This document shows, in pieces, positions 12,725 to 46,199 of a stretch of DNA of 64,000 nucleotides; the stretch's first letter is position 1, and each line of letters starts with the position of its first letter. The notes beneath the pieces were generated by a model. The model ran no database searches. It was not told where the DNA came from and saw nothing but the letters and a program-made list of their open reading frames with translations. Both the position numbers and the translations under genes were made by a program. Source of the DNA: Eledone cirrhosa (lineage: Eukaryota); NCBI GenBank assembly GCA_964016885.1, contig OZ024746.1, positions 13,206,001 to 13,270,000 of the forward strand, read 5' to 3'.

Positions 12725-12850
12725 CAAGTAATCTTGTTGTAGTGTTTCCAGAAGATATTTGAGCAAACCTCGCGTGTCCGATAGCAGGGAGCTTTGTAGA
12801 AACAACTTTGTGTTCTCCAATAAACCCAATGGTATAAACATTGGATTCTC
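12725..12850 (-). CDS. Coding exon (126 nt), N-terminal part of the phosphorylase domain
   Basis: cag/gtaag boundaries, phase 1-1. Reads (G)ESNVYTIGFIGEHKVVSTKLPAIGHARFAQISSGNTTTRLL(G) and joins both neighbours in frame. Confidence 0.9.
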
Positions 12851-13134
12851 CTGAGGGAATAGAAGAAATGAAAGAAATATATTAATGTGTGTTTCTCCCT
12901 CACTCCATTCAGACATCAAACCACGTACTATCATTATGGCAAAGCAATAAGTTAACAGAGTTGTTAGACAAAAATCTTGCAGTATTTGTTTTAGCTTTTT
13001 GTGCTCCAAGTCCAAATCCTATTGAGGTCAACATTGTCTTTCATCCTTTGGGAGTCAATACATACAGATGTAGTCCAGCACTGGGGTCAATTCTTCAAGC
13101 TTTTTCTCTTTCCAGAAGAAACTATCTATGGTCA

Positions 13135-13257
13135 AACCTAGAGGGCAACTGGCTCTGCTAGGTTTACAATGCCCAAACCTAGAGGCAACTGGCTCTGCTA
13201 GGTTTACAATGCCCAAACCTAGAGGCAACTGGCTCTGCTAGGTTTACAATGCCCAAA
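13135..13257. repeat. 40-bp tandem repeat, 3 copies
   Basis: Unit AAACCTAGAGGCAACTGGCTCTGCTAGGTTTACAATGCCC. Confidence 0.9.
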
Positions 13258-15034
13258 ACATACTGCACATCATAATGGCAGCCTTATGGCTGCATAAGAT
13301 GTTAAAGTCTATCCCAAATCCCGGAGGCTCATCAGACTGATGTTTATCTTGGATGTATCTGCCTAACCCAAATCCCTTCATGCCAGAGTGTAAGGATTGT
13401 AACATATAACTGAATTTGGGAAGAGAAACCTTCCCTTGGCGTGGCTTGATAACTGCTGTTTCTCCTGGTTTCTCTAAATTTAGCAGAGTTTGATCAAGTA
13501 TTGGGAACCTGGAGACATATCTGTTGAGCTTGGTTATATTACTAAAACAAAAACGACAGTGGTATCTTCATAACTGCAGCAGTCTTGATATTTCCTTGTT
13601 GGTTCCTCAGACATTGTTTTAGTTGTGTCATATACATTGATACAAACCAGGAACCATCTTGCATTTATACTTTACTTCCTTGTTTTTCCCACAATTCCAG
13701 AACTTCATTCATATCCTACTCCAGAATGGCCTTTACTTTGCTATTTATGAACTTCCTTGTTGCCAGTTTGATGGGCTCATGAGATCTGGTCCTGTTTCAT
13801 TTGGAAGCAACTATGAAAGCTATCTCTGATCAGAACATCTGGTGGTCTGTGCTGCAGTTTTCCCCTTTCATTAGCCATGTAATGTGTACACAACTCTTGT
13901 CTGGCAGTTTATGATATAGTATCAGGGATATCAGTTGAGCATGGATGCATCAAAGTCAAGATGTTGTTAGTAAGGATGAGGTCCTACTTGGAGTATATAG
14001 TGAGAAGTTCCCTATTAGTGTTACACCTCCAAAATTATATTTGCCAATAACACAGAGCTCTTCTCTGATTCTTCCTCAATATGGGCATTTGAAATTGTTC
14101 CGTAATAACTCTTTCTAATATTGGCACAAGGCCAGTTATGACCCCAGTACTTGACTGGTACTAAATAAAATAATAAGTAAATACATAATAAACTTGTTTC
14201 TTTGAAGCATCCAGTACACAGCTTTTTGCAGAGTATTGTAACACTTTTTTTTGGCATCATCAGAGCAATAAACACTAAGGTGATAGAACATCTCTTTCTA
14301 ACTCATGACCAAGTCATTAATAGCAGTTGATTCCTAGTCTAATTTGGTGATAATGCTGTGTATTCCAATCCCCCCAAAAGTTGTACACTATTTCATCTTG
14401 CAATAAACAGCTATATCAACATCTTATATTTTCAGTTTTCAATACAATGAGTGTGGTGTGCCTCTCTGATCTATTTGTCTTTCATTTTTTTACAGAATCT
14501 CTTGAGTTCTCTGCCCATCTAGGGTGTTGCTAAGGATTACCTAGTTAGTATTGGATAACCACTAATTCTCCTGAGTTTATTTGCCCTTCTTAACAGAGCT
14601 TATTTTTTGTCCCACATCTCAATCCTCTTCAGAGACCCCAAAATTGCTTCAAGAAGATTCAAGCATGTGGTCCAATAATTTATACATTTCACTTATTTCA
14701 GTGAATAACAAAATAATTCATTTCCCTCAACAAGTTTTCCCTTTTCACCTCTCTATATGTTGCCATAGTTTATTTGGGTTTTTAATCCTTGACAAATGTG
14801 ATTCCTCAGTCTGTGATAATATCTTTTAATTAACTCTCATATTCTGCATATTCCACTCACAAAGATTAGCGTCTCATTCTCACAGTCAAACAGTATATAT
14901 TTTAAGCAAGTGTTTTACATCTCAGCCCTTTCATTACCATATTTCTAATGAAATACACTCCCTATATGTTACGATTAATTTGGAAAATAATTTAAAAAAA
15001 GATTTAGATGACTTCAATAAAATACCCAAGTTTT

Positions 15035-15278
15035 TCAATGGTGTGCAGGAGAGGCAGTTGAGTTGGTATGGACATGTGATGCGTATGAAGGATGACAGCT
15101 GCATAAAAAGGTGCAGAGCACTAGAAGTCGATGGAAACTGCAGAGTGGGGAGACCTAAGAAAACCTGGGATGAGGTGATAAAAGCCGACCATACCCAATT
15201 ACACCTCTCAACCCGTCTAACCCATGCTAGCGTGGAGGAACGGACGTAAAACGGTGATGATGATGATGGTGATGATGA
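15035..15278 (+). mobile_element. RTE LINE 3' end with (GAT)n tail
   Basis: QLSWYGHVMRM...GRPKKTWDEVI motif. Confidence 0.8.
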
Positions 15279-15789
15279 TATTCAGAACATTACTTAACAG
15301 ACATTTTCTAAAATAAAATTATGCTGGAAAGTTTTAATATAAGGACAAATATTTTAAAAAGAGCAGTTTTGTATCATAAATCCGGGTTGATTTTAGGTAG
15401 GATGGTATCAAAACAGTTAAAATTTAAAAATTCAGGACACCAAAATGTTTTTAACATAAATATACTTCCATATGCCTAAGGGATTGGGTGGGAGGGTTAA
15501 TTTAACCTCTCAATATTAAATTAGAATTAAGTATATTACTAAATTTATATGCTAATAAAATACTTTACATAACATGTAAAACTTAAAATATTAATCTACC
15601 TCCGTTGTAATATTATTCATGTTAGTATTATTATGACAAAACAACGTCAATAATTGTCGCTATAGAAATTAACTGCAACTTTTTCGATTATTTCCCTTTA
15701 TCTAAAACTTTTTTTTTTTAAGCTCAATATTTTCAGTATAATTATTTCCTCCACCATAACAATAAAGCTTACAAGATTCTTCTTCTCCG

Positions 15790-16225
15790 ACTTATTGCTG
15801 AGAGGATCGTGGTGGGCAGAGTCCATAAACACTCCTTCCAGTGGGTCCTGTCAGAAGCAGCCGTCTCCAACGGATCCAGTTGAATCCCCAAGCGTGACCA
15901 GCCAAGCTCATGGATGTTATCCAATCATCTTGCTTTGGGTCTACCCCTGGGTCTCCTGCTGGTTGGTTTTGCCCGTAAAATCTGTCCAGCAATTCTTTCT
16001 TAGACATTCTGACCAAATGCCCATAGTTTCGGAGCTGTGATCTCTCAATTCAGAGGAGTAGCGGCTCTACCTGGAGTGACTGTCTCATCTCTGAGCTACG
16101 CACTCTATTGAATAACGTTACTCCAAAGACCCATCGGAGGAACATTTCAACTGCTTGTATTTGCGATCGTATTCTTTTGGTCATTATCTAAGATTCATGA
16201 TTATAGGTAAGGGTTGGCACAAGAT
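15790..16225 (-). mobile_element. RTE LINE 3' fragment
   Basis: Same family as 21340-21520 (RPRGRP..RWLD..-type end), in opposite orientation. Confidence 0.7.
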
Positions 16226-16649
16226 TATTCACATCACCTTTTATTTTATAAATACGGTATATGAATATAAATACAGTTTCTATTAATTTTATTTTTTGTT
16301 ACAGCTAAAAGTTTATAAATGTGCTAAAATTGCAGACAAAATAATGAGAAAAAATATGTGATTTGAAAGTTCCACTGGGAAGTTCTGGAGAGGGAATATA
16401 GGACAACTTTTGTGTCCATCCCAAGTCTCTCAGGAAAGGTCACAGGCCCATTATTAGTCATTTTGGTATTAGATGGAAACCGCAATATATTCTTTGAGCA
16501 AGCCTCTCTACCTAATGCCCTTTATGATACACAAAGGACAAAGCAATGATTCCTTTTATTGAATCTGACAATACTGCACTTTTTGATGGTCTTATTTGCA
16601 CCAGTCACCAATTTGGTAATTTTTTAGGACCCACGTTAGATATCGTCAT

Positions 16650-17138
16650 CATTTTTACAACCACTTTTCCACACTTGCATGGGTTGGAAGGGTCCTTCTC
16701 AGCACACCATTTCTCCACACATCGCGATCCTTTAACATCTCTGTGAGTCTCGGTGATTTGCAGTCAGCTCTCACCACCTCTGTCCAGGTCTTCCTTGGTC
16801 TACCTCTACCACGACTTTTTTCCACTGGCATTTCCTGTCACTTCTTCACCCAATGATCATTGTCCATGAGCATCACATGTCCAAACCAACACAGTCTTCT
16901 CTCCTGCACACATATATTACACAAATATGTAGAGATGAGATTTTAGGTAGAATATAGACTCACTGTAAATGAGGTTGGTGTTAGGAAGGGCATCCAGCTG
17001 TAGAAATCAAGCCAGATCAGTTCCTGTATGAGCAAGGCATGGTCAGCCGACCAGACACTGCCCACAACAGGACAACCCGTCTAACCCATGCTAGCGTGGA
17101 AGAACGGACGTAAAACGGTGATGATGATGATGATGATG
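16650..17138. mobile_element. RTE fragment (minus strand) plus a (GAT)n-tailed SINE (plus strand, about 16960-17138)
   Basis: LCWFGHV / GRPRKTW motif on the minus strand. SINE body is near-identical to 38621-38810. Confidence 0.7.
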
Positions 17139-17255
17139 ATAGAAATCCTTTACTTTGCTTCCATGTTATAAAGTAACCATCTTAACTTTTCAGGTTTAGA
17201 AAAGTTGTTACAAACAGAAAGGGACAGTTAAGAAAGAGATATTAAAATAACAAAC

Positions 17256-17399
17256 CTTCTGTTTTATATTTCATGTATGTGGTCTTGTTTTCCATCATGG
17301 CATCAACTGCAAGTTTTTCATAGTACATAGCTGTGATGATAGCAATGGTTGGTTGTTGGTTGGCAGCAATTGTTGGCATCTGTTTTACAAGTTGAACTT
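17256..17399 (-). CDS. Coding exon (144 nt)
   Basis: tag/gtttg boundaries, phase 1-1. Reads (E)VQLVKQMPTIAANQQPTIAIITAMYYEKLAVDAMMENKTTYMKYKTE(G). IAIITAM..E..AV matches the first strand/helix of Pfs-like domains. Confidence 0.88.
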
Positions 17400-18660
17400 C
17401 TACAATAGACCATTTAGACACAACGTGAGAATTAACAGCAAACATTGGACTTAGTTTGAGAGAAACTTTACTCTTGAGATTCACGGTAGATATCAGACAA
17501 ATACAGTTTAAACTTATTACAACTACTGATAGCTTGGATATGTGGGTATTTAGTGTCTGTATATGTGTGTGTGATTTGTTTGGATCAAATAGTAGTGATT
17601 GGGATTTTAGGACAATATTTTAATTCTAATGTGATGTTGATATGTATAAGTGTTTGAGGTAGTCAGACGTGCAGTTAGTTGCAGTAGGCTGCAATCAGGA
17701 ACTGTAATCCTCACATTTTGAAGTGAGTCTTTTCAGTATTTCTGTTACTCTTTGTTGTCTAAAAGAATTTATCTTAGATGTGTAATATACATAATAAAAT
17801 GAAGAGAGTTATTTTCTCAAGTTTGAAAGTAATGGGAAGAGAGAGGACTGACATAGTTAACGAAGGACATTATATATTATTTGAATACAAATACAGCAGT
17901 CCATTTGTTTTGTATCAATTCCAATTTATTAATGACTGCAGTATTGTGTATTTATATTTTTATAGGCAGGTAAGAAAGGCTGATATCAATGATAATAGGG
18001 GTTTTGGAATAGTAAATACTTAGATTGAGAAAAATCAAAAGATAAAATGATGGTTGGGTGTAGAGCTTGGGAAAAGTCTTGTAAAGGTGGGGATTGTTAA
18101 AATCTAAAATTAACTGTTTAAAGATTTTTGAGAGAGAGTGTAGAATGCTGGAATTTTCTGTTTGAAAAATCTAATTATCTTGCCTTGTTTCCTTATCTAG
18201 GAGGTCTAGTAGTTTTTGTGAAAGTGAGAATTTGTGGCCCATCTCTAAGAAAAAATACATTATTTACATGAAATTTCATACTTTTATCTTGTGTGTAGCC
18301 TCAAAAAACTGGTATTGTATTGTGTTTATTATTGATGATATATCAAAATGTTACGTTGAGGTGGGTTTACAATATGTAGTGCTATGTGGCCAATATTGAA
18401 ATATTTATGATATTCGATTTTGTAAAAAGGGATTTAGCATTTTCTAAGTTACTTTTATTTGTTTTTATTTAAACTCCTTTAATCAATGTGTATTTGTGTA
18501 TTGTATTTGAATAGCTATTTTTAATGTGTAATTAGAGTTGTATATTTTCAAGTTGCTTTTAATAAAATCATTGATTTACAGAAATAAATATCTTACAAGT
18601 GGAAAAAAATAACAAGTAGAAATAATAGAAAACTGTAAAAATATATAATGAAAATCGAAC

Positions 18661-18779
18661 CTGATTTTTCATCTAATACGTGTCTCATGAATCCACCCTG
18701 CTCCATTTCTGTCACCAAATTACGTACATTGAGTTCTTTCAGTTGTTCACGAACCATTACTTCATCAGCAGCAGTGATT
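18661..18779 (-). CDS. Coding exon (119 nt), winged-helix-like region
   Basis: tag/gttcg boundaries, phase 2-1. Reads (R)ITAADEVMVREQLKELNVRKLVTEMEQGGFMRHVLDEKS(E). Confidence 0.85.
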
Positions 18780-20683
18780 CTAGAAATTAAAGAATTAATA
18801 TTTTATTACTTCAGGACAAGACCACATTTTTAGGAGGTAGGGATTAACTCCAAGTGTATGATAGCTTCTTGTCTTATTGACCCCAGAGGGATGAAAGACT
18901 AACAGGATTTGAACTCAAAACAAATACAGTTGAAACTATTTGCCAGCATATTACCATTTCTGATTTGCTCCTGCCCTCTATACAAATAACAGGGAATAAT
19001 ATATTTATTCAATATTTCACCGTTAACCCTTTCAATACCAAACTACCTGGATGTATGAGGCAAAACTACTAATTTATACGATGAGGAGACTAATGATAAT
19101 GAGGAATGTAACAAAAATAACTTAGTTTTCTTGAATTACAGAAACAAACAAGTTTTGTTTTAGAGTGGATACTTCTGAATTAATTGCCCCCCCCCCCCCC
19201 CCATAATACAGGTGCTTTTAAAACTTACTAAAAAAAAGGGCTGAGAGGACCCTTCAGTTGTATAAAGAGCACAACAACCTCCCTAGTACTGGTGCCACAG
19301 TAAAATGCACCAATGCACCAGGGCACTCTGTTAAGTGTAGGAATATATGTGAGCAAGATGCAGGCCATTGGCCCACCTGTGAGGACAGTGGCTCCAATTG
19401 AGTGCTGATTTAGTGCTTGTCAACATGTCTAATGCTAGCATGGAAAAGTGGACTTATGATAATGATGATGATGATATACATGAAGTGTTTATATTTTGTT
19501 TGCAAGGATGAAAATTTCATTACAAATGCAAACATATTTATATGTAAAAAGAAAATTGAGCCATTCAAGAACCTCCTCCAGGAGCAGTAGGAGCTGTGAC
19601 ATGCTAGTAGAGTAGCTGAATAATGCAGACATCTTGAAGAAACCCAGTCTGGTGATTATTGCAGAAGTAGCAGCTACTTTGTATAAAATCAACAGTGATA
19701 TGGTGAAATACAATATTAAAAAGTGTGGGATAAACAATGTGATAGAGGAGGATATATTGTGGCAATAGCCAGATTAAACAAGACCTAGTGGTTAAGAGTG
19801 TTGCACCCACAATCATGTTATGAGTTCAATTCCTGGACTGGGCATCGTATCATGTTCTTGAGCAAGACATTTCATTTATCATTGCTTTTCATGATAGAAC
19901 TGGCACCCTATAATTAAAAACCCCCTAAAACCCTCTCATGAGATGTAACCCTATAGGAGGCCAGTTAAATCTATAGAGGTGTGAGCTGTGTGTGATAAAT
20001 AAGTTGCTGAGGACTCAGAAAACAAATAAGATGATCCTGATGCTGATTTTATGACAGCTGAACAGACACAGTAATTATTTGAAGAGCTTCATGAAAAAGA
20101 TTTCTATGATTTTGACTCACTTGAATGAATTACTTAACCTGTTTTTCTCATGTTTTTCAATAATTAACCCTTTTGATACCAAACTGCCTGAAACCTTCTC
20201 TGGTTTTACAATACAAAACTTTGTTTGAAATATATATATTAATCTAAAAACTTTAATTTTATGTAAGAAAATATCATTATGCCGAAAACCCCAGCCTTAT
20301 TGTTTTCAAAATTATTTGAAAGTCAAAGGCAGTGTCTTTCATTAGAAATATCCTTTATTATAGTTTAGATGGTAACAAAGGAGTTAAATAAAATTTGACA
20401 TTGAGCCACAGTTTGTGATTTGGAGCTTGACGTATATTAGAGTTGTCCGATTACTTGGATTTTTGTCTCATATTTGTATTTTGATCTTAACTGGCTTCAC
20501 AATCATCGTCATTTTTATGTACATTTTTCCATTATAGCATGGCTTTGGATGGGATATGTGACAATGTTTTACAGCTGGATACCCTTCTTGATGCCAACCC
20601 TTTTAGTCCCCTCTTACAGAGATATGGTGCATTTATTCTAAAAACAGCGATATAAATATTTATGGTACAATGTAGAAACTCAC

Positions 20684-20792
20684 CGACAGATATCTTCTAC
20701 TGCTAAAATGTTGGGATATGCAGATTCCAATATATGTAACATCTTTTCACGGAGAATTTCATCCTTTGGACGATTGTCAATTTTAGGTAAAC
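20684..20792 (-). CDS. Coding exon (109 nt), winged-helix-like region
   Basis: tag/gtgag boundaries, phase 1-2. Reads (G)LPKIDNRPKDEILREKMLHILESAYPNILAVEDIC(R). Confidence 0.85.
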
Positions 20793-26160: not shown

Positions 26161-27323
26161 ACTGCAAGACTGTCAGATGCTCTAATGTTTACACAATTCC
26201 TCCTCCTTAGACTGGTTCTATATTTAATGATTTTTTAAAGTATGAAGGGCAAAACTAACCTCACCTTGTGAAACTACTACACTACTATTGCTGCCACTAC
26301 CATCATTACTCACAAGGTAATGGTCAACCTAAGGCTTAGGTAGAAGACACTTGTTAGGGGAATTCATTAAAATAATATTTAAGGCAAGAATGTCTTGAAG
26401 GATTGAGCATATATATGCAAATTGATATATAATATGACTAATGCATATTGAAATGTAAACTATTCAAATAAACAAGAAAATATTTAAAAGACAAAGAAAT
26501 GTTTTAGAAAATCCACCAACTTTTAACAATAAAGATGGATCTACAACACAAAATAAAATCCACAGACGTATATGAATGAAAGATTTGGTAACTTAAGCAA
26601 CCCAAATAACCTTATGGAAAATAAGAATATTAATTTTCACAAATACATCTAGCTATTAATATTTATTCTAAAAAAAAACTGACATGTTTTTTTTTTATAA
26701 GAAATCCTGAAGCAACACAATTGCCTTATACTTCTTTAGAAAAACTGTAGTATTTCCTTCAAATAATACATTCAAAATAAAATACCCTATAAATTTCCAG
26801 AGACGTAGTGTGAGGAAATAGATATAGAATAATATTTTGAAAAATAAATTTTTAAAAGAACAATATTTGTCAGTATGGCTACTCATGTAAATAAGGCATT
26901 CAGGACATTAAATAGTGAACTAAATAGATAAATAAATATAAATATTCATTGTTACAGGGACAACATCAACATGCAACAATACCATAGAATAACAGACAAC
27001 TAGAATATTTAACCAGTTGCAACTTTTCAGATTTAAATATACAAATCAGACAATACTGAATTTATGTCAACCCTGGTCCTGTTAATTACTTATTTATACT
27101 TAATATATATGAAATCAGCATTATGCCGACAATATCTTGTCATCTTGTCACACCATGTATGTAACTGTGAGACCATGTATGTAACTGTGAGACCACCAGG
27201 CCAGATATTTTTTTTTTAAATGACAGGAGCAGGGTTAAACACACACACAACAGCAAGAACAAATGTCAGGAATAGAAATGGAAAAAGTAATAATGATAAA
27301 TACAGCATGCATGGGTTACTTAC

Positions 27324-27338
27324 CGTCTACAGTCATTC
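27324..27338 (-). CDS. 15-nt microexon (G)MTVD(G), containing an in-frame ATG
   Basis: catgcag|GAATGACTGTAGACG|gtaagt. Phase 1-1 and in frame with the 20684-20792 exon. Confidence 0.7.
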
Positions 27339-30300
27339 CTGCATGGTAAGTAGAGAATAAATACTATGTCAATGTTAGCTCAACATGCGCACACACATTT
27401 CTACACACACATACATACACACAGAGTTTGGTTCAATTCAAGAAAGTAAATGGTACAAAGAATATTTTAAAATATCTTCTGAAAGTCTTCACAAATGGTA
27501 AATTCTTAATTACCGACCATTTATTCCAACAGGTTTTCTTTGCATTCTTAGATTTTAGACTTTTAAAATGCCAAGAAGCAACAGCATTAAAAAATAAAAC
27601 TACATAGACAAAACAATGTTTTTCAATATACAACCCAACAAAGAAGTCTCTTCCTGGTCACTCAACTGGCTAGGGTCCTGTATCTAGGGAAAAGATGTGA
27701 TGCCTTTGATCATAGGTCTGCTCAATCGGGGCTGACCTGAGGCTTAATTATAACAATGCTGTTCAATACAAAGAGATAACAGATCTAGTACTTCTACTAT
27801 AAAGACTTCTTACAAAGTTATTTAATTATATTAAAGAAAGAAATTGTGAAGTTTTACCAATTAATCTTTCACAATTAAAACAAGTCAATATGTTGAGTAA
27901 TTTGATTAGAAAAAATAAGAAAAAAATGTTTTCATCCAACAATATTAATGGAAAAAAAAGTTGAGGGCCATCACAATGTAATCACTATAGTAAAAAATAA
28001 AATAAAATAAAATTTAATATTAGTTCAATAAATTTAATAAAGTAATTTTGTAGCCTGATATCCATAGTAAGAATCTGTAATTAAATTGAAAACAAATTCA
28101 ATTCAAGTAATTAACAAATTAATTCACAGTCTAAAAAATAACAATTAGCTTATTTCCACTGTTTAAAAAAAAAACAATTAATAAATTCTAATACTAAAAA
28201 CGTAAATTTGTTTTAATATTCCTGAAAAACTATAAATTCCAAAATAATGTTGACTTTGGAAATTTATTTATCAAAATATTAAACCTTGTGTTTTGGAAAG
28301 TTGATATTTCACAAATCCAATACTGAAATACAAGACAGAAAGCAAGTTCAACCAAAGTTTGCAATTAAATATATAACTTTACTTTTGTAGAATGTATTAT
28401 AATAATTTAGGGCACAAATTACAGAGGGCAATTTCCCTTCTAAATAACTGGTACTTACTTTATGAATCCAGGATGAAAGAAAGTTCACCTCTGCAATATT
28501 TAAATTCAAGAGAGAAAGATAAGACTAAATGCTACATACTATTTTGATTAGCTCTCTACTATTTCTGCTACTATACTCTTTAAAATGTCTAAAATTGGTA
28601 TAATGTTTTAGAATTCTAACAAAAGAAAAATATGAAGAAAGTTCATATTTTTTCAACCCTTTCATTTTCATATTTCTAACAAAAGACACTGGCTAAGATT
28701 TATAAATAATCTTTTGAATAATCAAGAATTTGGAGGGATTTTGTAATATTAACAAAGGTTCTTACATAAAATTATGACAGAGAGCTTTTAGATAAATATA
28801 ACAGCTTAAGATAGTTTTGTACTGTAGAACCAGGAGTTTTGAACGGTTTAGTATCAAAAGGTTTAAGGTATGTGAAACAGTTATAACTAGGAACCCAACT
28901 TGATTTTCTCAGAATTTGCAACTACACTATGGTGTTCACCTCAACAATAATGATAATAATTACTACTACTATTATTATAACAAGGTGGATGCAATAAATA
29001 TATTCTAATGAGGACATTAAATTCAGTAAAGAAAAAGAAGTCTTTATTAGCCTAATACTACTTTTTCAACTCTAATTAATTAATGACTTAACAACATCTA
29101 AGATAATCTAGCTTGTAATTAAGCATTTTAATTAGATTGTTCTGGAAAAAGTCAGAGTTTGTTACTACTCACTGCAACATAAATTCCATACTGCAATGGC
29201 ATTTTATTCAACACACTACCAATTCTGCCATTTCACCACTGATGTGTATACAATATTGCAATTGATTCAAAAGATAAACATATTAAATATTTTGTGACAG
29301 TTCAGTGAGAGATGTTATGGGGAGTTACTACCTGTAATATTTACCTGAGTGGTCCGGGCACTTTTCTCTTCATTCCTATTCATACAAAAACCTTTGCTGT
29401 TTCCAAACATTTCTTCCTTACAAGAACACCTATAAGGTTTGTATATCTTTGAGAATGGTGAATGGACAATTATAAGTAAGGAAACATATCCTTTATTCTC
29501 TTTAAGGTACATTTTCAAAGTGAACTAAACCTTCAGAAAGTAATTTACTTTATAAAGTACAAAGCTACTGTTTTAATATACTCCATTTTATATCAAATGC
29601 ATAATTTTAAGTTAAAGCAGTCTCCTCTCAAACAAGAATGTGTCTTGGCTCTTTTTAAGATGAAATATATAAGAGGCCTCTTTTCTCTGGTTAAAATCCT
29701 TGAGATAGTTTTCCTACTAATATCTTAATACATACTAAAGGTTCCTAACAACATCATTTAGATAGGATACCAGTTCATTGGTGATTGGTATCTCTTCAAT
29801 TATTTTTTTAAATATTAGAAAAATATTAGACATGAGAAGACTTTATCCAAGAACTTTCCATTTTGATTACTGCAGACATCAGTTTAAATGTCTCATTGTT
29901 ATAAATTCCAGGCAGATGTATATTAGTTAAGAATCTGAAATATTAAATGAAGAAAAACATAGATCCTACATACAGTTTTATTTCTTATCAAGTAACCAAA
30001 TTAATCCTTCTAGCTCATCTTTTCATAGTTTATGGCTGGTGTTCTGTCAGCTATAATTTAAAATATATCTCTTTGTCAGATTTATGAGATTTGTTGAGAC
30101 TACAGCTGCTAAAGTTACACTGATGGAAGATTCTGGTACTGGATAATAACATTGAAACAAGGTTTTCACTGACACTTGTAAATTATGTTAAGTCATAATT
30201 ATCACAGAATTCAAAATGATTTGAGTAGATAAAGTGTCACTTTTACAGTTCTAGGATTACAATTTTGAATCTCACTATTTCAAAATGCAAGACAATTCTA

Positions 30301-33957: not shown

Positions 33958-33987
33958 CAACAATAATTGGCGCCGAAAATCTGTCTT
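33958..33987 (-). CDS. 30-nt microexon (E)DRFSAPIIV
   Basis: ttttttcttactag|...|gtaggta, phase 1-1, open frame. Confidence 0.7.
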
Positions 33988-34697
33988 CTAGTAAGAAAAA
34001 AAAGATATCTATATATATATGCATAAAGGTGTCAGCTATTTTATATAAAGTATGAAATTACATTACTTAAATACATCTTTATAATTAAAACTTAAATGAA
34101 ATGTTCTTAATACTTATAATACTCATACACATCATTTTCTATTGCATGTTACAGTTCTGATATGGATTGTTTAGGAATTCTAGTTACGTAACTCCCGAGA
34201 GAGTCGTAGGGCACCACATTGACATATGGTGTTTCTAGGGTATTCTTTAAACCTAGCAGAGCCCATCTCCTCTCTAGGTCTGAATACAGCAGATTTCTTC
34301 CAAAGAAGGATAGAGAGAGTGAGAGAATGGAAGTGATAAATAAATATAGAGGAAGAATCGACCTCAGTACTAGACTGGTACTTTTTTTATTGACCTTGAA
34401 TGGATGAAAAGCATACAAAAATGCAACTAATCAGGAACTTTCAACACATGTCTACTCATCCTAGTTTCAAACTGATTCTAAAATAAGAACCAAATCACTA
34501 GCATACATTGCAGATACCAAAACTAGATCTAATTTATAATAGTCTGGAGTCTTAGGATGAAGACAGGCTCAAGTGAATAATTATAGTAATGTAAATACTT
34601 TACTCAACTTTTGACATTTGAACAAATAAAACTAAATTGTGTTATTTGTACATATTTTCAAACTGTCAACTATCCTTTTAAAAACACATTAATATAA

Positions 34698-34876
34698 TTG
34701 TTTCTACTTTAGGCACAAGGCCAGCAATTACCCAGTGCATTACTGGTACTTTATTTTATCGACCCCGTAAGGATGAAAGGCAAAGTCAACCTCGGCGGGA
34801 TTTGAACTCAGATCGTAAAGGGACGTAACTATGCTGGAAAGCATGGCGTCCGACCCTCTACCGATACTGCCAATCC
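34698..34876 (-). mobile_element. tRNA-derived SINE, young copy
   Basis: Near-identical to 25299-25440 and 50128-50298. The minus strand has a B-box-like GAGTTCAAATCCC. Confidence 0.85.
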
Positions 34877-36132
34877 AGTTTCTAATTTCAGCACAAGGCC
34901 AGCAATTTTTGTGAGAAGAGATCAGTCAATTAAATCAACCTCAGTACTTGACTAATACTTTATTTTATCAACACTGGAGGAAAGGCTAAGTTGATCTCAG
35001 AGAGATCTGAAATCAGAACATAAAGAGCCTGAACAAATACCACAAAGTATTTTATCCAATGCTCTAACAATTCTACCAGTTCAATATAATGGCAACAGTC
35101 TTATATTATTAAATAACATTCTATGTAAATATTTTCAAATGTTTTCACAGCAAAATTAAAAATAATAGTGATTGCAATATATTTATGTAAGAGATCAATA
35201 TATTACTGAAGATAGATCCTCTGTCAATTTTGAAGATGAAAGTTCAGCTCATCAAATTAATAGTTAATTGGCTGAATATTCCACAGACATGTGTAGCTTA
35301 GAAGCCAAATTAGTGTAACACAATATGTGCGAGGACTGGACTTCAGAATTATAGGTACAATCCATCCAATGGGCATCTACACAGTTTCTGTCTACCTAAT
35401 TTTACTCACAAGGCTTAGGTTGACCAGAGGATATGATAAAAATACCAGGCAGTTGGATCAAACCCTGGACCACATGATTGCGAAAGTGAATTCTTAACCC
35501 CACAGCCATGCCTGCCCCATATATTACTGGTATTTAGTTCATCAACCACAGCCAGACTTAATGTTAGAAAAGTGATTTACTAAATTAGATGTATTTAAAA
35601 ATATAACTCTTAAATATATATATATAGTAATTAATCATCTTGAGGAGATTTACTTCAAAATAACCAACAACAAAATAATAAACTAAACTAATTGTGTAGA
35701 CTTTAATAATTCTTTATAATCAAAGATGATTATTATTGATTCAATGTTTTGGCACCAAAATTACATTATCTTTAAATTACATTATATTCAAAATATTATA
35801 ATAAATATTTTATCAAAACCAATTGAAGAAAATAACAAAAATTATTAAAATAAATAAATGTGTTTCTTAATTATTCTCACTTGGAACAATTTATAATAGT
35901 TTTATATGAAACAGAATCAATGTTTAATTGAACAACATTGGAATCTTTGAAATACATGCAATATTTTCAGGCTGTTACATCTATGTTGAAATATTTATGT
36001 TTACAGTTATTGTTTGAGTAAGTTAAAATGAGATCTCTTATGAACTACAATTATAGGTTTTTAGGAAGCAAGGTTTCAATAAAAGCCCTTAACTCCTGAT
36101 AAAGTTGTATGGGTGCCATCCTGACATACAAC

Positions 36133-36445
36133 ATCATCATCATTTCATTTTACGTCCGCTTTTCCCTGCTTGCAAGGGTAGGACGGGAACTGATTCTGGC
36201 TTGATTTCTACAGCTGGATGCTCTTCCTAACACCAACCTCATTTACAGTGAGTGCTGGGTGCTTTTTTGCCATGGCACCTCCACGACCACTCTACAGTGG
36301 AATGATAGGGACCCCAGTCCCTATCATCTCATTTCTACAGCTGAGGAAACTGGAGCAATGTGAAATAAAGTGTCTTGCTCAAGGAAACAACACATCACCC
36401 GGTCTGAGAATTGAAATCACAACCTTTCGATTACAAGGCCAACAT
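36133..36445 (-). mobile_element. SINE (tRNA-like head, GAT tail)
   Basis: Reverse-complement match to 60091-60465. Confidence 0.8.
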
Positions 36446-36782
36446 GTATTGGGTATATTAAACCTGGTGGAGCCCATCCTTCTCCAGGTCAGAACACAGT
36501 CAATCTCTTCCAATACTTAACTGGTACTTTAGGTATGAACCCCAAAAGGATGAAAGGTAAAGTAAACCTCTGTAGGATTTTAATTCAAAGTGCAGTGAGT
36601 AGAAACAAATACTGAGGCATTTTTAATCTGCCACCCTAAAGACTCCATTTGCCACCATTGTAGCAAAGTTTAAAGAGATATTTAAGACATATTTTCATAT
36701 GAGTTAACTATGAAATGGTGGCAATCACTATGAGTATGATAATGAAATGATGAGAACTATGAGATAGCAGCTAGTTACCTAC

Positions 36783-36815
36783 CATCGATATCAGCATCAC
36801 TGATTACTTCTTCTG
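36783..36815 (-). CDS. 33-nt microexon, type B, (A)EEVISDADID
   Basis: tttctgttccag|CAG...|gtaggta. Paralog of the 39891, 42093, 43953 and 46200 exons. NAGNAG acceptor. Confidence 0.8.
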
Positions 36816-38620
36816 CTGGAACAGAAACATGACAGATTTCAGCAAGAATACAAAACAAACTACATTCCTTTTGTTTTTACTCTATCAATTACCACCAAAG
36901 ATGGATACTTTAAACACAACAAGTCTAATAATTTCTTCAATAAAAACTCTAGATACCTAAAAGAAAGTTTAAATAATTCTTTCTAACATTGGCACAAGGC
37001 CAGCAATTTCAGGAAAGGGAAAGTCAATTATATCAACCCCAGTACTTAACTGGTACTTTATTTTATCAACCCCAGAAGGATGAAAGGCAAAGTTCCTCTT
37101 GGTGGGATTTGAACTCAGAACGTAAAAAGGTGTAACTAAATACAACAAAGTTCAATGTTCTACTAATACCAAAAGATTAAATAATGAACGAAAGTATGGT
37201 ATATTTCTTATCTGGATATAATAAAATTATCAATTTAGTTACCCAAAGTTCATATTTGAAAGAGCAAACAAACACTAAAAAGATTAGGGCCTGCAGATGT
37301 TTTCAAAAGATTTCTTGAGGCTGAGAAAACTTGAGTAAAGAAATACATGGAAGAGTTAGAGAAAAAGAAGCAAGAAAGCCAAAAAGTTTCTTTTCCCCTA
37401 TTGTTGATTGATTTTCTGTAATAGGCATGTTGCACCAAAAATTAAGCCCCTATTTTAAGGAACATATGTTTATTGTTTTAGTAAGTAAAATGAAGACCTC
37501 TCGTTAGCTGAATGTTAATTTTAGCTAGTTGTATTTACAGGACTACTTGATCTGTTACTGTTATTGACCACTCTCTCAAAGTGCAATAAAATACATTGAA
37601 CCGACCTCTATTACATAGACAGAATTATAAAATAAGACTTCAACACCCTCTACTCCTACATATTTGAGGACAATACGTACAGCTTTTAGAAATCATATTT
37701 TGTATAGAACTCACAGGCTGTAAATTCAATGAAGACTTTGAAAGTCATCAAACCTGTTTGTATATTGAAAGTCAACTTGGACAGACATAGAATTCCCTAT
37801 TTCTTCTATATAAATTAGTTAAGAGTATAAAACTGAAACCTTGAGAAATATATGCAAAAGACTGATTGAGAAATAGGTCAGTGGAAAAATACATCTGTAC
37901 ATAAAGCAATCTGTTAAAATCTAAGTGTTGATAATGTTCTTAAAAATTTTGTTTCTGAATTTGTTTAGCAAGATTCTTTATCTGAAATCGTGTGTTGAAA
38001 CCGATATTGTTATACTTAGGGAGGGTCATGTTGCCAATAAGAAACACACGCACCAGTTGCTTTCACTTCAGTTTATTATATATTTATAAATTTACAAATT
38101 TATAAATTTCTGGTTGGTTGGTTGGTTCCACAACCAGATAGTTGTTTATATATAGTCATAGTCCTTTCGTCACACACTCTGTGACCTCTTCAGTGACTGG
38201 GGATTCCTTTCTTTGTTTCTGTGCCTCTCCTTTGTTCTGTCCTACGCCATTTTGTTTCTGTGTGTGTGTTGTGTGCTCAGTCTGCGCATGCGCCACATCC
38301 GGGTGTCTGTGTGTGTGTGTGTTCTTAAAAATATTCTGAATAAATGAGCAATTTGTTTATATACTGTTCCTATATTTATACAATCAGTTAATATACAAAT
38401 TAACTGAAATTATTATTATCATTTTATGTTTGCCTTCCCATGCTGACATGAGATGGCTCGTGACAGAAACCCACCCCTCTCAATACATTCTTACAGAGTG
38501 TACAGGGTGCATTTTCTCATAATACCAGCACTAGCTAAATTTTCATGTCCGTGAGATGACTGAAGAGTCCTCTCTACTCTTAACAGAGCTAATTAAGTTA
38601 AGTGAGAAAATAAGTCTATA

Positions 38621-38905
38621 TCATCATCATCATCATCATCACCGTTTTACGTCCGTTCTTCCATGCTAGCATGGGTTAGAGGGTTGTCCTGTTGTGGGTA
38701 GTGTCTGGTCGGCTGACCATGCGTTGCTCATACAGGAACTGATTTTGGCTTGATTTCTACAGCTGGATGCCCTTCCTAACACCAACTTCATTTACAGTGA
38801 GTGCTGGGTGCTTTTTCGTGGCGCCTACACGTCCACTTTACAGTGTGGGCTGGGTGCTTTTTTGCCGTGGCACCTCCACGGCCACCTTGCGGTGGGGGGC
38901 GTGGG
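38621..38905 (-). mobile_element. SINE with (CAT)n tail as read on the plus strand
   Basis: Matches 16960-17138 in reverse orientation. Confidence 0.8.
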
Positions 38906-39890
38906 GGCATATTGTCTATATGCTTCAGCTTGTACCCATATATATATATCATACACAACACTTGCTACACACTCACACACTAAATTCACAACTCTATCAA
39001 ATGTACTCATGTTTTTCCTCTAAGACATCATTTATATTTTTAAATTCTACCGGAAGTAAATTTACAAATACCATCAATATAGTCATATAGTTCTATTTAC
39101 CTTCAATTCTACATAACGATACCATCAAGATACAATAAAAGTTTTAAAAACTGTTATAAACTGCAATAACATATATACTAATTCTGAAGTACTGCAACGG
39201 AGACCCTCTCCTCCACTCCTTCACTACCACCACCACCACCAAATAACCTGGCTTTAGCAGCTGGAACTGTAACAATAACATTTGACAGACACCAACAGCT
39301 AAAGGCTAATTTATGTTTTATATTTCTATACAGCACCAAAACCAAAGGTTACCACTTCATTGCAAACAAGAGATTTATTGAGAAATAAATGTCAGCTGTA
39401 TGGTTTTATGTGCAGAGTTATAGCAAAACTGGGGAGAGGAGATAATTTGGTAAATCAATGAGATCAATATTGACAAAGGTCACTTTCCTATATGGAGTAA
39501 ATACAGCAATGTTGAGAACTATCATAGACGTTCTAAGTTAGGAAATTAAAGAAATTCCAGGTAACATTTTCACATAATTACATTAATAATACAAAACAAT
39601 TGAGATTTAACTTTTAACGCTCTCTACCACATGAGCAAGACTTTCTTGCAAAGTACAAAATATTACTACACTATGAGTGCATCACATGAAAAATTAAAGC
39701 CTTTACCTTAATACAACAAATTTTCACAACAATCTACCCATTAGTTAAGATAATATAAACATTTGAATTAACAAACAAGTTTTTAGATATTTTCTGTTAA
39801 ATTATTACAGGATGATAATAGCTTCCTACATTAAATAAAATGTATAATAATGAAGTGATGAGAACTATAAGATAGCAGCTAGTTACCTAC

Positions 39891-39923
39891 CATCGAAATC
39901 AATATCACTGATTACTTCTTCAA
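39891..39923 (-). CDS. 33-nt microexon, type B, (V)EEVISDIDFD
   Basis: tttttgttccag|...|gtaggta, phase 1-1. Confidence 0.8.
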
Positions 39924-40567
39924 CTGGAACAAAAACAAGAGGTATTTCAATAAGGATATGATAGAATATTACACATTTCTATAAAAGTTGATTAGTTTCA
40001 AACCACAGCAATATTTCTTGATTAATGTTGAACAAAGCAAGCCTTTAGCAACAATTTCTTATGATTTCATCAATACAACAGTAATAAACAGGATTTTATT
40101 GAGTTACCACTGAAGATATTTTCTTCAAGTATGCTCAATACCAGTTATGCAGATACACTGAGTTAAAATACAACTAAGTGTTTCATTGGGAGCTTACCCC
40201 ACACACACCCTAAATGTTCACATTTACAGAAAAAAATCAGTTAACTAAGAATTTATTCTCTCAAAAATGATGAATTCTTACAATTTTAGGCATATCACAG
40301 TTGACAAAAATAAATATTGATATTTCATTTTGAATGTTAATGAATAAACCAAACTTCAAATAACTAATATCCAAAATTAACTATTTATGAAAAACTACAA
40401 CAGAACAGATTATGAAGATATTTAAATGTAGAACTTCCCATTTAAAATGTTATGGAGAAGACAAGATTTTCTTTTATAACAAAACCTTAACAAATTAAAT
40501 AACTATATGTAATAAAAAACACAGAGAAATGTTAAAACATCATGCAAATCAGCCATAAGGTACCTAC

Positions 40568-40594
40568 CCACTCCAACTGGGGGTGGTAAGTCTT
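40568..40594 (-). CDS. 27-nt microexon, type A, (E)DLPPPVGV
   Basis: taatag|...|gtaggta, phase 1-1, UGCAUG at +22. Confidence 0.78.
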
Positions 40595-42092
40595 CTATTA
40601 ATGTAAAACAAAAATACAGTAAATAACAGTGATATTTTAAAGAATGTATAATACATATTATGTTAACATTTTGATATTGAAAGAAGCACAAGACGTATTT
40701 GAGTATCTAAGTAGACAAAGTATTTGTGTCTAAACAAAACTGTACATTACAGAAAGTTATGATTGCTTATTGCAATCATAAAACTATTTACAATTTGACC
40801 TCAATTATCCAAATGGTGGGAAGTGTTTTGTTCAAATAACTAATATCATTGCAATCAAAGAGAGCCATACTGAACACAGGATTGTTTTATGAGTTCTCTA
40901 ATGTTGTACACCTGTGCAAACTTTTGTACCTTTTCATCACGATCCAGATGCTGTAAAATCTCGTATTTCTCATCAATTGTTAATTGTGTTTACTTTCTGT
41001 TCTGAGATATGGTAACAGCAACAATTAACAGATATATACTCTGAACAAGTCATAGACTTAATTAAGGCACCAATGTCTTTGTCATACCTTTAAATCCTTC
41101 AACAAATTAGAGGCTTTTATGAGATAAAAATATTTTAACAGTTTAACACTTCAGGATTTAAACCGGCCAGAAATCTCTCACCTCTTTCTGTTCAAACCAG
41201 TTAAGGTATTGTTCTCAAAATAAATAATATCAAAATCTCATAGATTTGATACCATACGAGATAATTATGGAAGGTAAAGCCTTTACTGTGCAAATATAAA
41301 AGTAAATATAGAGTAATGTAAATGATAAAAAGTTAAATTGACTAAGATTAAAGTAGTAGACTGACCAAGCCATGATATTGTATACAAAAGATGCAATCAT
41401 TCCACCAATGTTGGTAACACATCTTTAATGTTATACTTTCACATATTCTTTAGTACAAATTCACTTTCAATCCTTGTATACAGAATATAAAATGATAAAA
41501 CCAGTATTATCCTCTAGGTCAGTATGGTTAATCAAATATTCATGGGACTTTGAGATCTGATCCAGATAATTGATGTTTGGATAACTGAGGTTTGATTGTA
41601 ATCAAGTTTTGAGAGATCTGATCCTTTATCAGAAGTTAAATTTAAACAAAAGTAGAAATAACAGACAAATGTTTAGTAACAATAGTGTTCCAACAAAAGC
41701 GTAACACTTCCATTTCTAAAGAGATTTATAATGTTCTCATGCTGTGCTGTGCACCCTTAACTCCTAGTGGAGTCGAAGGGACACTGTTGTGACATACAAC
41801 ACATCTTTGGTACTTTTAAACCTGGCAGAGCCCATCCCTCTCTGGGTCTGACTGAACACAGCTGATTTCTTCCAGAAAAGAGTGGAGAGAGAAAGAAAGA
41901 GATATGGAAGAAGAAGAATCAACCCTAGTATTGAACTGGTACTTTATCAACCTTGTAAGGTTCAAAGGCAAAGTTGACCTTGGCAAAATAATTATACTAT
42001 TCAGCTTATACAATGTCATCAGAGATACCAAATAATTAAGTTATGAATGAAATGTTCTAGATTGAGATAATGAGGATTATCTAGTTACCTAC

Positions 42093-42125
42093 CATCAATA
42101 TCAATATCACTGATCATTTCCTCAA
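42093..42125 (-). CDS. 33-nt microexon, type B, (V)EEMISDIDID
   Basis: tttctgttccag|...|gtaggta, phase 1-1. Confidence 0.8.
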
Positions 42126-42839
42126 CTGGAACAGAAATATGATAGATTTCAGCAAAGATATAATGGAATTATAAACATTTGTGTTAAACATTATTAGTTT
42201 TAAACCACAGCAATATTTGTTGGTAAATTTTGAAGAAGCAAAAACTTAAACAATAAACTTCAACCATCTCATCAAAAACTAGAAAATAGTTTGATTTCAT
42301 AGACAGCTTATAAACTAAACTTTTACTGAAATTCTACCATAAAAAAACTAGATTTCCCAGCATATTTACAAGCTCTGTTCATCTATAGCTGTGTATTTCC
42401 TACTATATAAAGATATACAATCATCACTTTACATGTTTCCATGATTGTAACACCAAAAAATATATATTTCATACATTATGTGCCTTAAACAACTTTCAGA
42501 AGATTGCTCTGAGAAATCTTCAATAAAGGTGCATGACTCAATAATAACGCTAAGCAAATTTCTATATTTATGGAGTTTATGTTCTACCTATCTGTAACTA
42601 AATCCTTTCTAAAAGCTTTAGAATTCAGTGGAGATTTTATACCAGTTAGTGATTCTGACATTAATATTACTATGCAGACTGAGAAATATTTGCTATTTTA
42701 TGATATTTCTTTTTGAGTTAAACATTGTGGCCATATATTGTTTGATGTAGCTATGAAATTGTATGATATGGCTGAGATTTGTGAATTAATAGGATTGCAC
42801 ATCGTTAAATGACTATGAAGAGATTCTGTTCCACGATGT

Positions 42840-43080
42840 TCAGTCTTTACCTTAATAGACTATTAATTTTGCAAAATATGAATGGCTACACAATGGATGC
42901 TGTTAGAAAGGAGTTAATCAACATATTCAAAAAGTTAGATTTAAAGATAACAAACTGTAGATATGAATGTAAGCATAATTAATTTCTTAGATATAACTCT
43001 ACAGAAACTACCTTATATTAATATAAATTTGAGCCATCCCCCCAATAATTCTGAAAAAAAAAACTAGCTAATAACATTAG
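42840..43080 (+). mobile_element. Penelope-like retroelement remnant
   Basis: Frameshifted KELINIFKKLDLKIT...INFLDITL...SHPP motifs. Confidence 0.5.
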
Positions 43081-43332
43081 TGAGTGGAAACTTCTTTATA
43101 ATGACAGTTCCTATCTACCCAATTTTACTGACATGGCATTGGTTGACCCAAGGCTAAATGATACTTGCCCAAGATACCATTTGGTGGGATTGAACCCAGG
43201 AGTTAATGATTGTGAGACAAACTTCTTAACTAAGTTACATCTACAGTAAATTTATATTTGTAAAATAATGTTGAAAACAAATAATGTGAGGACATGTTAA
43301 AAGAGCATGCAAATGAGCCATGAGATACCTAC

Positions 43333-43359
43333 CAAAGTCAATTGGAGGTGGTAGATCTT
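43333..43359 (-). CDS. 27-nt microexon, type A, (E)DLPPPIDF
   Basis: gattag|...|gtaggta, phase 1-1, UGCAUG at +22. Confidence 0.78.
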
Positions 43360-43952
43360 CTAATCATGTAAAATAAAAGTCAAAGATGTAAATATATTTG
43401 ATTTAAATAAATACTGTTAATATATTACACAGCTATTAATTCAGTATTGGAACATATACTAAACTTTAGGTTATATGCTGAACCAATAAAAACACACACA
43501 AAAGAGGTTTTATTGACAGCACAACAATCAGTAAATTACAATATTATAAAGTATGAAAATCAATTTCACTAAAAAAAGGAATTTATAATCCTTATTAATA
43601 AGATTATACATTATAAATATACCTTTTTGAAAGCCTTACAGTTTTGCCCAGGATTTTATAGTTAAATTAAAGTCTTTTCAAAATATTATTTATAATGAAT
43701 GGTGACATTTTAATAGTCAAACATCTGGCTTTTATTGAGTTCTAAATAACTTAAAGTAACCAAAAAACGAAACATTTCAGCTATTTTACTAAATCTCTTC
43801 AAATTCTAGATTATTATGAAAATTAATTGAAACATCGGCAGGAAATAATTAAAGTTGTCATCAGAAATACCAAATAATCAATGAAGTATTACAAATTGAC
43901 TCCTATATTAAATAGAATGATGAGAACTATGAGATAGGAGCTAGTTACCTAC

Positions 43953-43985
43953 CATCGATATCAATATCACTGATTGCTTCTTCAA
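43953..43985 (-). CDS. 33-nt microexon, type B, (V)EEAISDIDID
   Basis: ttccgttccag|...|gtaggta, phase 1-1. Confidence 0.8.
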
Positions 43986-44461
43986 CTGGAACGGAAATAT
44001 GACAGATTTCAGCAAAGATGTGGAATTATAAACATTTATGTTAAACATTATTAGTTTCAAACCACAAGAATAATTCTTGATTAATTTTGAGCAACACAAA
44101 GCTGAAGGAATTATTTTCAATCTCCTCATTAACTATGGAATAGGTTCAATAAGTAATAATTACGCTAAAGACTTACTTCAATTGCTACAGTACTACTAAG
44201 TATATGGTAAATAGTTATACACAAAAATAATTATAAAAACACTATATTTTTTCATTGATGTATTATTTATTTGACTTTGTTTTTCAAAAGTTTGTTTCTA
44301 TTTTTCAATTAAGTTCTGATTCTACTAGAAAATACTATTAATTCCTCAAACCTAATTTCTTTTAACAGGAAGTCTTAAAGGGCTTGACTTAATTTATTAA
44401 ACTTGTTTGAAATGTCTAAAAGTTTTAGATGATGCTTAAAGCAAGAATATGTATGTGCATG

Positions 44462-44492
<31 letters not shown>

Positions 44493-44698
44493 ACAGACAC
44501 ATTTCAAACAGACATTATCCAACTATTTATGAAAAGCTACAACAGAACAGGTTTTGAAGATATTTAAAGGTAGAACTTCCCATTTAAAATGTTATGGAGA
44601 AGACAAGATTTTCTTTTATAACAAGTTAAATGACTATATGTAATAAAGAACACAGAGAAATGTTAAAACATCATGCAAATCAGCCATAAGGTACCTAC

Positions 44699-44725
44699 CC
44701 ACTCCAACAGGGGGTGGTAAGTCTT
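44699..44725 (-). CDS. 27-nt microexon, type A, (E)DLPPPVGV
   Basis: taatag|...|gtaggta. Differs from the 40568 copy by one synonymous change (CCA/CCT). Confidence 0.78.
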
Positions 44726-45199
44726 CTATTAATGTAAAACAAAAATACAGTAAATAACAGTGATATTTTAAGGAATGTATAATATATCAACATTTCATAA
44801 TATATATCAATATATCAATGTTAACAACATTTTGATATTGAAAGAGACACAAGAAATTAGTGTTTGGCTATTAGAAACGCATAATATATAAATGTATTTT
44901 ATTAATGGCAGATCAATTAATAAGATACTGTTATAGTGATATAAAAGCAAACTAAACTACTTTGATACAATTTCTTATCTTTCTGCCAACGCATTTCTCT
45001 GGAATTTCCTTTCCATCCATATCTATCCTTTAACAATTCAAGCTGAACTTCAATATTATTGGGTTTGATCCCAGAGAGTCTCTGGTCTCTACACAATCAT
45101 ATGTTTAAGGAGATTGTACATGTGATAAGTACAGCAAAAGTAAACCTGTAGCAAGAGAATCTCCAAAATTCTATATGGTAGGAGGCAGCAAATCATAGT

Positions 45200-45440
45200 C
45201 AGGAACAGTTATGCCATGCAGGGCACAAGAAACAAGTCTTCTGTGTGTTGCAGATGACTGGGAGTGTACAGCAGACCTCTCAGGATTGACAAAATTTGAA
45301 ATCATCAGGAAGAGTAACTTGAGGCCGGACATCATACTCCATTCCAGTTCATCAAAACAGCTGACTTTCATTGAACTCACTGTGCCATTGGAAAGTAGAA
45401 TAAAAGAAGCAGACATGTTCAAGACCGAAAATATCTAAAT
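45200..45440 (+). mobile_element. Non-LTR retroelement restriction-like endonuclease fragment
   Basis: LRPDIILHS...QLTFIELTVPLE is a PD..(D/E) REL-type motif. Confidence 0.7.
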
Positions 45441-45978: not shown

Positions 45979-46153
45979 GCTATTAATACCCCTAAAGTGA
46001 ATAAGATGCTATTAATATCCCTAAAGTGAATAAGATGCTATTAATATCCCTAAAGTGAATAAGATGCTAGTAATATCCCTAAAGTGAATAAGATGCTAAT
46101 AATACCCCTAATGTGAATAAGATGCTAATAATACCCCTAATGTGAATAAGATG
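45979..46153. repeat. 29-bp tandem repeat, about 6 copies
   Basis: Unit GCTATTAATATCCCTAAAGTGAATAAGAT. Confidence 0.92.
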
Positions 46154-46199
46154 TAAAAGATGGATTTGAACAGAACTAACACAGCATCTAATTACATAC

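Follow-up and report, generated by a model that had tools for sequence, protein, structure and literature searches.

The question raised by this locus is whether a hairpin, predicted to hold both splice sites of a 15-nt cassette microexon, acts as a switch between skipping and inclusion of that exon, or is a fold of little consequence for its splicing. The exon lies on the minus strand of the window, i.e., the whole 64,000-nt stretch of Eledone cirrhosa DNA that was analysed. The coordinates of all features are given in Table 1.

The host gene and its microexon array

The last coding exon shares 91–96% identity with proteins of Argonauta and Octopus that carry the annotation LOC115212809 / LOC106873546. 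Tblastn located the core exons within the window and the 5′ exons in 150 kb of upstream sequence. The order of the protein is an N-terminal domain, an HTH_69 winged helix (wHTH) and a PNP/MTAN-fold domain; PF01048 falls below the cut-off in the octopus protein and above it in the bee homologue. A sequence search of the PDB with the last exon yielded nothing useful. By this architecture, HTH_69 followed by PNP_UDP_1/MTAN-fold, the gene resembles Drosophila CG12065 and C. elegans H14E04.2, which are described by Rousset et al. (10.1101/2023.01.24.525353) as metazoan proteins with a Z-alpha-like wHTH and a Cap17-like PNP, and bee and mosquito homologues are among the matches. CG12065 is also described as alternatively spliced (PMC4274639). 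However, unlike the CG12065-type proteins, the cephalopod gene carries a combinatorial linker of 0–476 residues before the wHTH.

This linker is built by an array of microexons. In total, 31 phase 1-1 microexons were scored, of which 30 are largely duplicated (27–39 nt) and the 15-nt exon is the last; 12 of the duplicated ones lie beyond the window end. On its upstream side the array is bounded by the exon ending in APLSP, some 26 kb outside the window, and on its downstream side by the GLPK exon (20792). The sequence-only reading had placed the 15-nt exon at the junction between a variable extension and the core; the exon does stand just before the core, but what varies is a linker inside the protein and not a terminal extension. 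In the AlphaFold model of protein P0141, the five residues encoded by the exon fall into the sole internal segment with pLDDT < 50 (residues 159–168). A candidate immune nucleosidase whose linker is assembled from about 31 frame-preserving microexons is probably a sturdier finding than the hairpin itself.

Table 1. Features of the locus on the minus strand, with positions in the window.
Feature	Position	Strand	Basis
Last coding exon, encoding the C-terminal portion of the PNP/MTAN-like domain	666..1408	-	homologue matches
Three further core exons, about 18787-18662, 17400-17254 and 12850-12725	12725..18787	-	tblastn
Next constitutive exon, GLPKIDNRP..., where the wHTH domain starts	20684..20792	-	homologue match
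UGCAUG, predicted Rbfox site at +13; 71-86% paired in the weaker outer stem extension	27306..27311	-	motif, folds
Donor G|GUAAGUA, 3′ arm of the predicted outer stem	27317..27324	-	sequence, folds
15-nt cassette microexon, phase 1-1, reads G-M-T-V-D	27324..27338 (27338-27324)	-	sequence GAATGACTGTAGACG
Exonic CUGUA, 3′ arm of the predicted inner stem; 4 Watson-Crick pairs and one G-U	27328..27332	-	folds
Acceptor UGCAG, 5′ arm of the predicted inner stem and UGC motif at -5	27339..27343	-	sequence, folds
Predicted outer stem 5′ arm UACUUACC, in the pyrimidine tract at -14..-7; complements the exon's own donor	27345..27352	-	sequence, folds
UCUC, part of the eMIC-type acceptor code	27353..27356	-	motif match
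Weak stem extension, 5′ arm; predicted partner 27308-27302, covering UGCAUG	27361..27367	-	folds
Predicted branch point CUAAC, branch A at -37	27374..27378	-	CUAAY motif match
Nearest upstream microexon, EDRFSAPIIV	33958..33987	-	homologue match
In-window array: 18 duplicated phase 1-1 microexons, 27-36 nt	33958..63143	-	Octopus sinensis isoform P0005/P0123 peptides

The 15-nt exon and its use in relatives

The peptide of the exon is GMTVD in the window, GMTAD in Octopus spp. and GLTAD in decapodiform-like proteins, and the exon is in frame with both of its neighbours. Its combined splice score is the highest among the minus-strand microexon candidates in the window, its splice sites are the strongest of the array, and it is the only one of the 31 array exons with a GTAAGTA donor, GTAGGTA being found in 25. 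The sense-strand layout proposed earlier was confirmed on the minus strand: TACTTACC (27352–27345), A, TGCAG (27343–27339), the exon and then GTAAGTA, which runs to 27317. The stretch containing the exon is single-copy, and contigs of two samples match it without differences (X1 record 26058–28746, X4 record 27020–27442). No splice joint at the exon was seen in the contigs of four runs.

We compared 54 cephalopod proteins, 48 of which span the junction; the G[ML]TAD peptide of the 15-nt exon is present in 39 and absent in 9 of these, the counts being catalogued isoforms of other species and not abundances. The O. sinensis isoforms X47 and X48 differ at the junction solely by these five residues. 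The isoform proteins and the exon map thus bear out a real microexon, within the 27-nt limit of eMIC/SRRM-dependent microexons, frame-preserving, alternatively spliced in relatives and placed directly before the wHTH-PNP core. The exon is included with the array skipped in P0014, P0141, P0143 and P0146, and it is skipped with the array present in P0002, P0004 and P0126. Array and exon are used independently in both directions, and the suggested gating of the variable part by the exon did not hold. Likewise, to call the exon locked was too strong, as the catalogued isoforms of relatives mostly include it.

The ATG to which the sequence-only reading drew attention is present in the exon as an internal codon only. 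Met occurs in 30 of the 39 including proteins, and the other nine have Leu, all of them Logan proteins of the type clustering with Sepia pharaonis; this replacement shows that the ATG has not been conserved as a start. In Mercenaria, an optional segment GKGLTADELM is found at the same junction, and short inserts occur there in many molluscs, annelids and arthropods, which makes the junction an old splicing hotspot.

Regulatory motifs around the exon

The exon carries the eMIC acceptor code described in 10.1101/2021.02.24.432780 (the source of the CUAAY branch motif) and 10.1101/2024.09.17.613571: CUAAY, UCUC and UGC near the acceptor, with an AG-free zone between -26 and the acceptor. Among the 18 acceptors checked, the three motifs occur together at the 15-nt exon alone. 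A match to SRRM_C (eMIC) is encoded in the genome (PF15230, 29.3 bits against a cut-off of 27). In its length of 15 nt, preserved frame, CUAAC at -37, UCUC, UGC and strong donor, the exon is like the eMIC/SRRM3/4 (SRRM234) neural microexons of these two papers, although, unlike in those, its UGC overlaps the YAG.

The UGCAUG at +13 in the downstream intron, also named earlier, was found as TGCATG at 27311–27306. UGCAUG lies at +13 to +32 in 7 of the 31 array exons, belonging to 4 of 11 families (our own grouping; p about 1e-6), which is above the background of 0.23 per kb. A decapodiform-like read-through protein has G-R-Y-D-F-C-M after an array exon, and this fits a GTAGGTA donor followed by TGYATG. 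A UGCAUG close downstream and repeated in the array is a likeness to Rbfox-activated cassette exons, but the candidate site at the 15-nt exon is, unlike theirs, predicted to be partly paired.

In the vertebrate neural microexons described in PMC12871342, the region from branch point to acceptor is accessible, whereas that of the 15-nt exon is predicted to be paired, with an in silico opening cost of 11 kcal/mol at 25 °C. Short SRRM4 microexons are described as typically splicing the downstream intron first (PMC10250204).

The predicted hairpin

Refolding of the 42-mer gave the hairpin as it had been described, at -15.4 kcal/mol with a z-score of -5.0, and none of 200 shuffles was as stable. 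The outer stem pairs UACUUACC with GGUAAGUA, and the inner stem pairs UGCAG with CUGUA. A stable stem is therefore predicted over the 5′ splice site, and the pairing probability of donor and acceptor is at least 0.98 in all contexts tried, with flanks of up to 400 nt. The hairpin is predicted across 10–37 °C, while the wider 201-nt region as a whole is ordinary in stability (z 0.19). The match to U1, which had been offered as separate evidence under the name of a U1 mimic, adds none, because the complement of a consensus donor is necessarily the 5′ end of U1.

The property that sets the exon apart is the coupling of its two sites. Opening both together is 6.8 or 5.2 kcal/mol cheaper than opening them separately (40- or 60-nt flanks, respectively), and the next best values among the other 30 array exons are -3.4 (40-nt flanks) and -2.3 (60-nt flanks). 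Coupling as strong as -5 to -7 kcal/mol is thus confined to the 15-nt exon among the 31, and 5 of 1200 tract shuffles reached this size. The cost of opening the donor ranks first among the 31 exons with 40-nt flanks and fourth with 60-nt flanks. In-silico removal of either flanking intron lowers the opening cost from 11.0 to 5.2–7.1 kcal/mol (25 °C). When UGCAUG was held open in silico, the donor was still 97–99% paired, and for this reason Rbfox binding alone would not open the hairpin; an opening factor would need an arm of the main stem. The replacement of Ala by Val, which may have changed a G-C into a G-U pair, was left uncounted, the exon positions being mostly unpaired.

Chance expectation and genome-wide search

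A minimum free energy at or below the observed one was reached by 94 of 40,000 sequences with acceptors drawn from the gene's own acceptor profile and by 263 of 40,000 with the tract shuffled. Hairpins as stable and with both sites paired arose in 17 of 30,000 fully random 15-nt microexons and in 80 of 30,000 that kept the real exon and donor. The chance of such a hairpin is therefore 0.06–0.7% per exon, which is modestly beyond chance. The inner stem is not fine-tuned, as 28 of the 128 synonymous codings fold equally well.

The inverted pair TACTTACC-N10-30-GGTAAGTA was not enriched genome-wide: it was found at 17 loci and the reversed control at 21, and with CAG required there were 3 loci against 3 control matches. 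We inspected 16 of the 17 loci, including that of the 15-nt exon and leaving out one on C26, and the other 15 contained no convincing second example. Five share one common palindromic repeat flank, and two are AT-microsatellite palindromes. The best look-alike, L036, has a 15-nt 'exon' in a similar architecture and was rejected as a repeat copy with at least 40 similar copies. At 6e-4 per microexon, and assuming 1000–3000 microexons, roughly one such case would be expected per genome. The fold is thus rare per exon but within the chance yield of one genome.

A paralogue of about 40% identity lies on C28; the 35 kb preceding its wHTH exon contain neither a matching microexon nor the 8-mer TACTTACC, and no N-terminal exons of this paralogue were found. 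Read-through into the intron upstream of the 15-nt exon was found in none of 318 proteins. A pattern scan of metagenomes for orthologous DNA returned one match, a bacterial-like open frame of 54% GC, which was rejected.

Interpretation of the hairpin

We favour, with a probability of roughly 45%, a model in which the hairpin is a default-skip switch with coupled sites, opened by splicing factors. The 36-nt stem would fold at once on transcription and keep U1 off the donor and U2AF off the tract and the AG, and skipping would be the default. Binding of U1 to the donor, or of U2AF/eMIC to the tract, would open one arm and thereby free the other. In cells with eMIC/SRRM234, acting through UCUC, UGC and CUAAC upstream, and with Rbfox, acting through UGCAUG downstream, the switch would turn to inclusion; once opened, the exon has otherwise consensus-strong sites and would be included. 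The removal of either intron would roughly halve the remaining opening cost. With inclusion, a flexible linker would gain five residues, among them the internal Met encoded by the ATG. Every step beyond the predicted fold is something that we infer. Described precedents are splice-site stems that repress exon 10 of tau and the donor of CG33298 (PMC2724269; PMC7404189), as well as exon 7 of SMN2 (PMC1802598), and strong splicing effects are described for hairpins engineered at splice sites (PMC6783452).

Two sets of observations pull the default-skip model in opposite directions. No other exon of the array has splice sites as strong, and yet this one is skipped in 9 of the 48 isoform proteins of relatives. 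On the other side stand the absence of genome-wide enrichment, the 39 isoforms of 48 that include the exon, and the accessibility of the corresponding region in vertebrate microexons.

The main competitor, nearly as probable, is an ordinary eMIC/Rbfox-regulated microexon with an incidental, unselected fold of little weight in vivo. The complementarity would then follow from the meeting of a C/U-rich tract with a consensus G/A-rich donor, and from a palindromic TGCA shared by the acceptor and the Thr-Ala/Val-Asp codons. The 17 loci against 21, the expectation of about one case per genome (with an assumed microexon count) and array exons with donors equally costly to open all agree with such a fold, and the full eMIC-type code together with the Rbfox site suffices to explain the regulation. 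It is harder to reconcile with the chance of 0.06–0.7% per exon and with a two-site coupling unique among 31 exons; moreover, a local 36-nt stem of -15 kcal/mol should be physically hard to avoid after transcription. The tract could instead act as a single strand, UACUUAC being a decoy branch point or an SF1/STAR (QKI/HOW-type) site too near the AG, at which a protein represses the exon. UACUUAC is one mismatch from the QKI-type ACUAAC (PMC7404189), and a second TCTACTTACC lies at +14 to +23 past the constitutive APLSP donor that opens the array, pairing with that donor about half the time. We consider this improbable, given that UACUUAC is predicted to be paired at 0.98 or more, that the branch point at -37 is better, and that the two occurrences of the 8-mer in 137 kb are about the chance expectation.

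The place of the upstream TCTACTTACC is suggestive: the 137-kb gene contains this 10-mer exactly two times on its sense strand, one copy at each array end, and its predicted duplexes with the array donors have energies of -11 to -15 kcal/mol. A Dscam-like long-range system could be built from it, the upstream anti-donor copy docking array donors and looping out variable stretches, with the local hairpin as the last element. To this we give hardly any probability: just 8–11 bp would have to act across 4–63 kb, extended complementarity with the microexon or the next acceptor region was not found, non-donor sites pair better, and the decapodiform-like P0168 reads through after the same donor without codons for the 8-mer. 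It is also very improbable that the loop ATG starts a short wHTH-PNP isoform under control of the hairpin, or that the 8-mer serves as the donor of an antisense exon on the plus strand (27227–27345). The O. bimaculoides isoform X11 (P0147) does begin with MTAD, but other models of that species begin at internal Met residues of the array, as partial models do, Leu stands for Met in 9 of 39 proteins, and the stem could hardly affect translation because it would be lost on splicing. The plus-strand acceptor and donor pair, 119 nt apart, scores well, but this acceptor is the poly-T mirror of an A run.

A bolder version of the default-skip model, which we regard as unlikely, is a cross-exon definition made by RNA: the pairing of tract and donor would give all-or-none inclusion, would be conserved in coleoids, and would end a linker of 31 microexons that tunes an immune-like wHTH-nucleosidase. 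The exon would be too short for U2AF-U1 bridging, and binding at one site would free the other. How both splice sites are recognised in exons shorter than 30 nt is an open question, and present data favour an unstructured acceptor region, to which an acceptor tract paired with the donor of the same exon would be a compact exception.

Comparison with known systems

The literature searched, which comprised few subscription papers, contained no direct report of this gene or of cephalopod microexons, nor any of a microexon with both splice sites in one hairpin. The duplicated array of alternative exons with candidate RNA pairings is reminiscent of the docking site-selector system of Dscam exon 6; unlike there, the cephalopod exons are combinatorial and not mutually exclusive, and an extended docking complement of the Dscam type with mutually exclusive use was not found in the host gene. 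The closer likeness is to MAPT (tau) exon 10, SMN2 exon 7 TSL2 and the Drosophila CG33298 box pair, as described in PMC2724269, PMC1802598 and PMC7404189, with a stem over the 5′ splice site that would compete with U1 and a predicted outcome of skipping. The hairpin would be a putative member of this known donor-masking kind, with a new geometry. In contrast to tau, SMN2 and CG33298, the partner strand is here the acceptor pyrimidine tract of the same exon, and one predicted 36-nt hairpin takes in both sites.

Linker-encoding array

The microexon array of the host gene is probably more notable than the hairpin predicted at the 15-nt microexon. Its 30 duplicated phase 1-1 exons include the EKIE.., DLPPP.. 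and EEVISD.. families, the first expanded to 14 copies in Eledone cirrhosa, and 25 of them carry G|GTAGGTA donors. Among the O. sinensis/Octopus isoforms seen, the acidic/proline-rich linker that they encode is 0–188 aa long; decapodiform-like proteins, in which the repeats are unrelated, have as much as 476 aa of linker.

Features on the host contig and at the paralogous locus
Feature	Position	Strand
Array of duplicated microexons	window 33958-63143, on to about 13291935 of G000:C6 (contig holding the window)	minus
DLPPP-family microexons with own-donor complement	window 44725-44699, 43359-43333, 40594-40568, 49466-49437	minus
Second TCTACTTACC	G000:C6 about 13296103-13296112 (L004), 26 kb past window end	minus
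Candidate antisense exon, 119 nt	window 27227-27345	plus
Long intronic tandem repeat arrays	window about 5700-6900, 7400-9000, 53100-54300	
Transposase-like remnant	window about 1760-2970	
Host-gene paralogue	G000:C28 about 35629800-35703500 (L022-L033)	plus

Donor complements elsewhere in the gene

The layout of the 15-nt exon, a hairpin plus an Rbfox motif, is resembled by four DLPPP-family microexons, in which a complement of the exon's own donor lies inside the exon (predicted paired 0.83–0.90) and UGCAUG follows at +22. This complement may be a mere consequence of the proline codons. The 10-mer TCTACTTACC has only two sense-strand copies in the 137-kb gene, one per array end; the second lies at +14 to +23 from the donor of the constitutive exon opening the array, with which it was paired 41–59% in silico.

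Other observations

The candidate antisense exon, which scores well, has as its donor the reverse of the UACUUACC arm. A second optional 5-aa segment (GSNFD / GTNSD) was seen near the N-terminus of the cephalopod isoform proteins P0005, P0008 and P0011, and a scan of the first intron in the Eledone cirrhosa genome found no phase 1-1 15-nt exon for it. At L034, L039, L042, L044 and L046, loci from the genome-wide search for the 8-nt inverted pair, a dispersed MITE-like palindromic repeat was present whose arms hold the consensus donor sequence on both strands. The paralogue shows about 40% identity to the host gene in the last exon and a similar exon layout.
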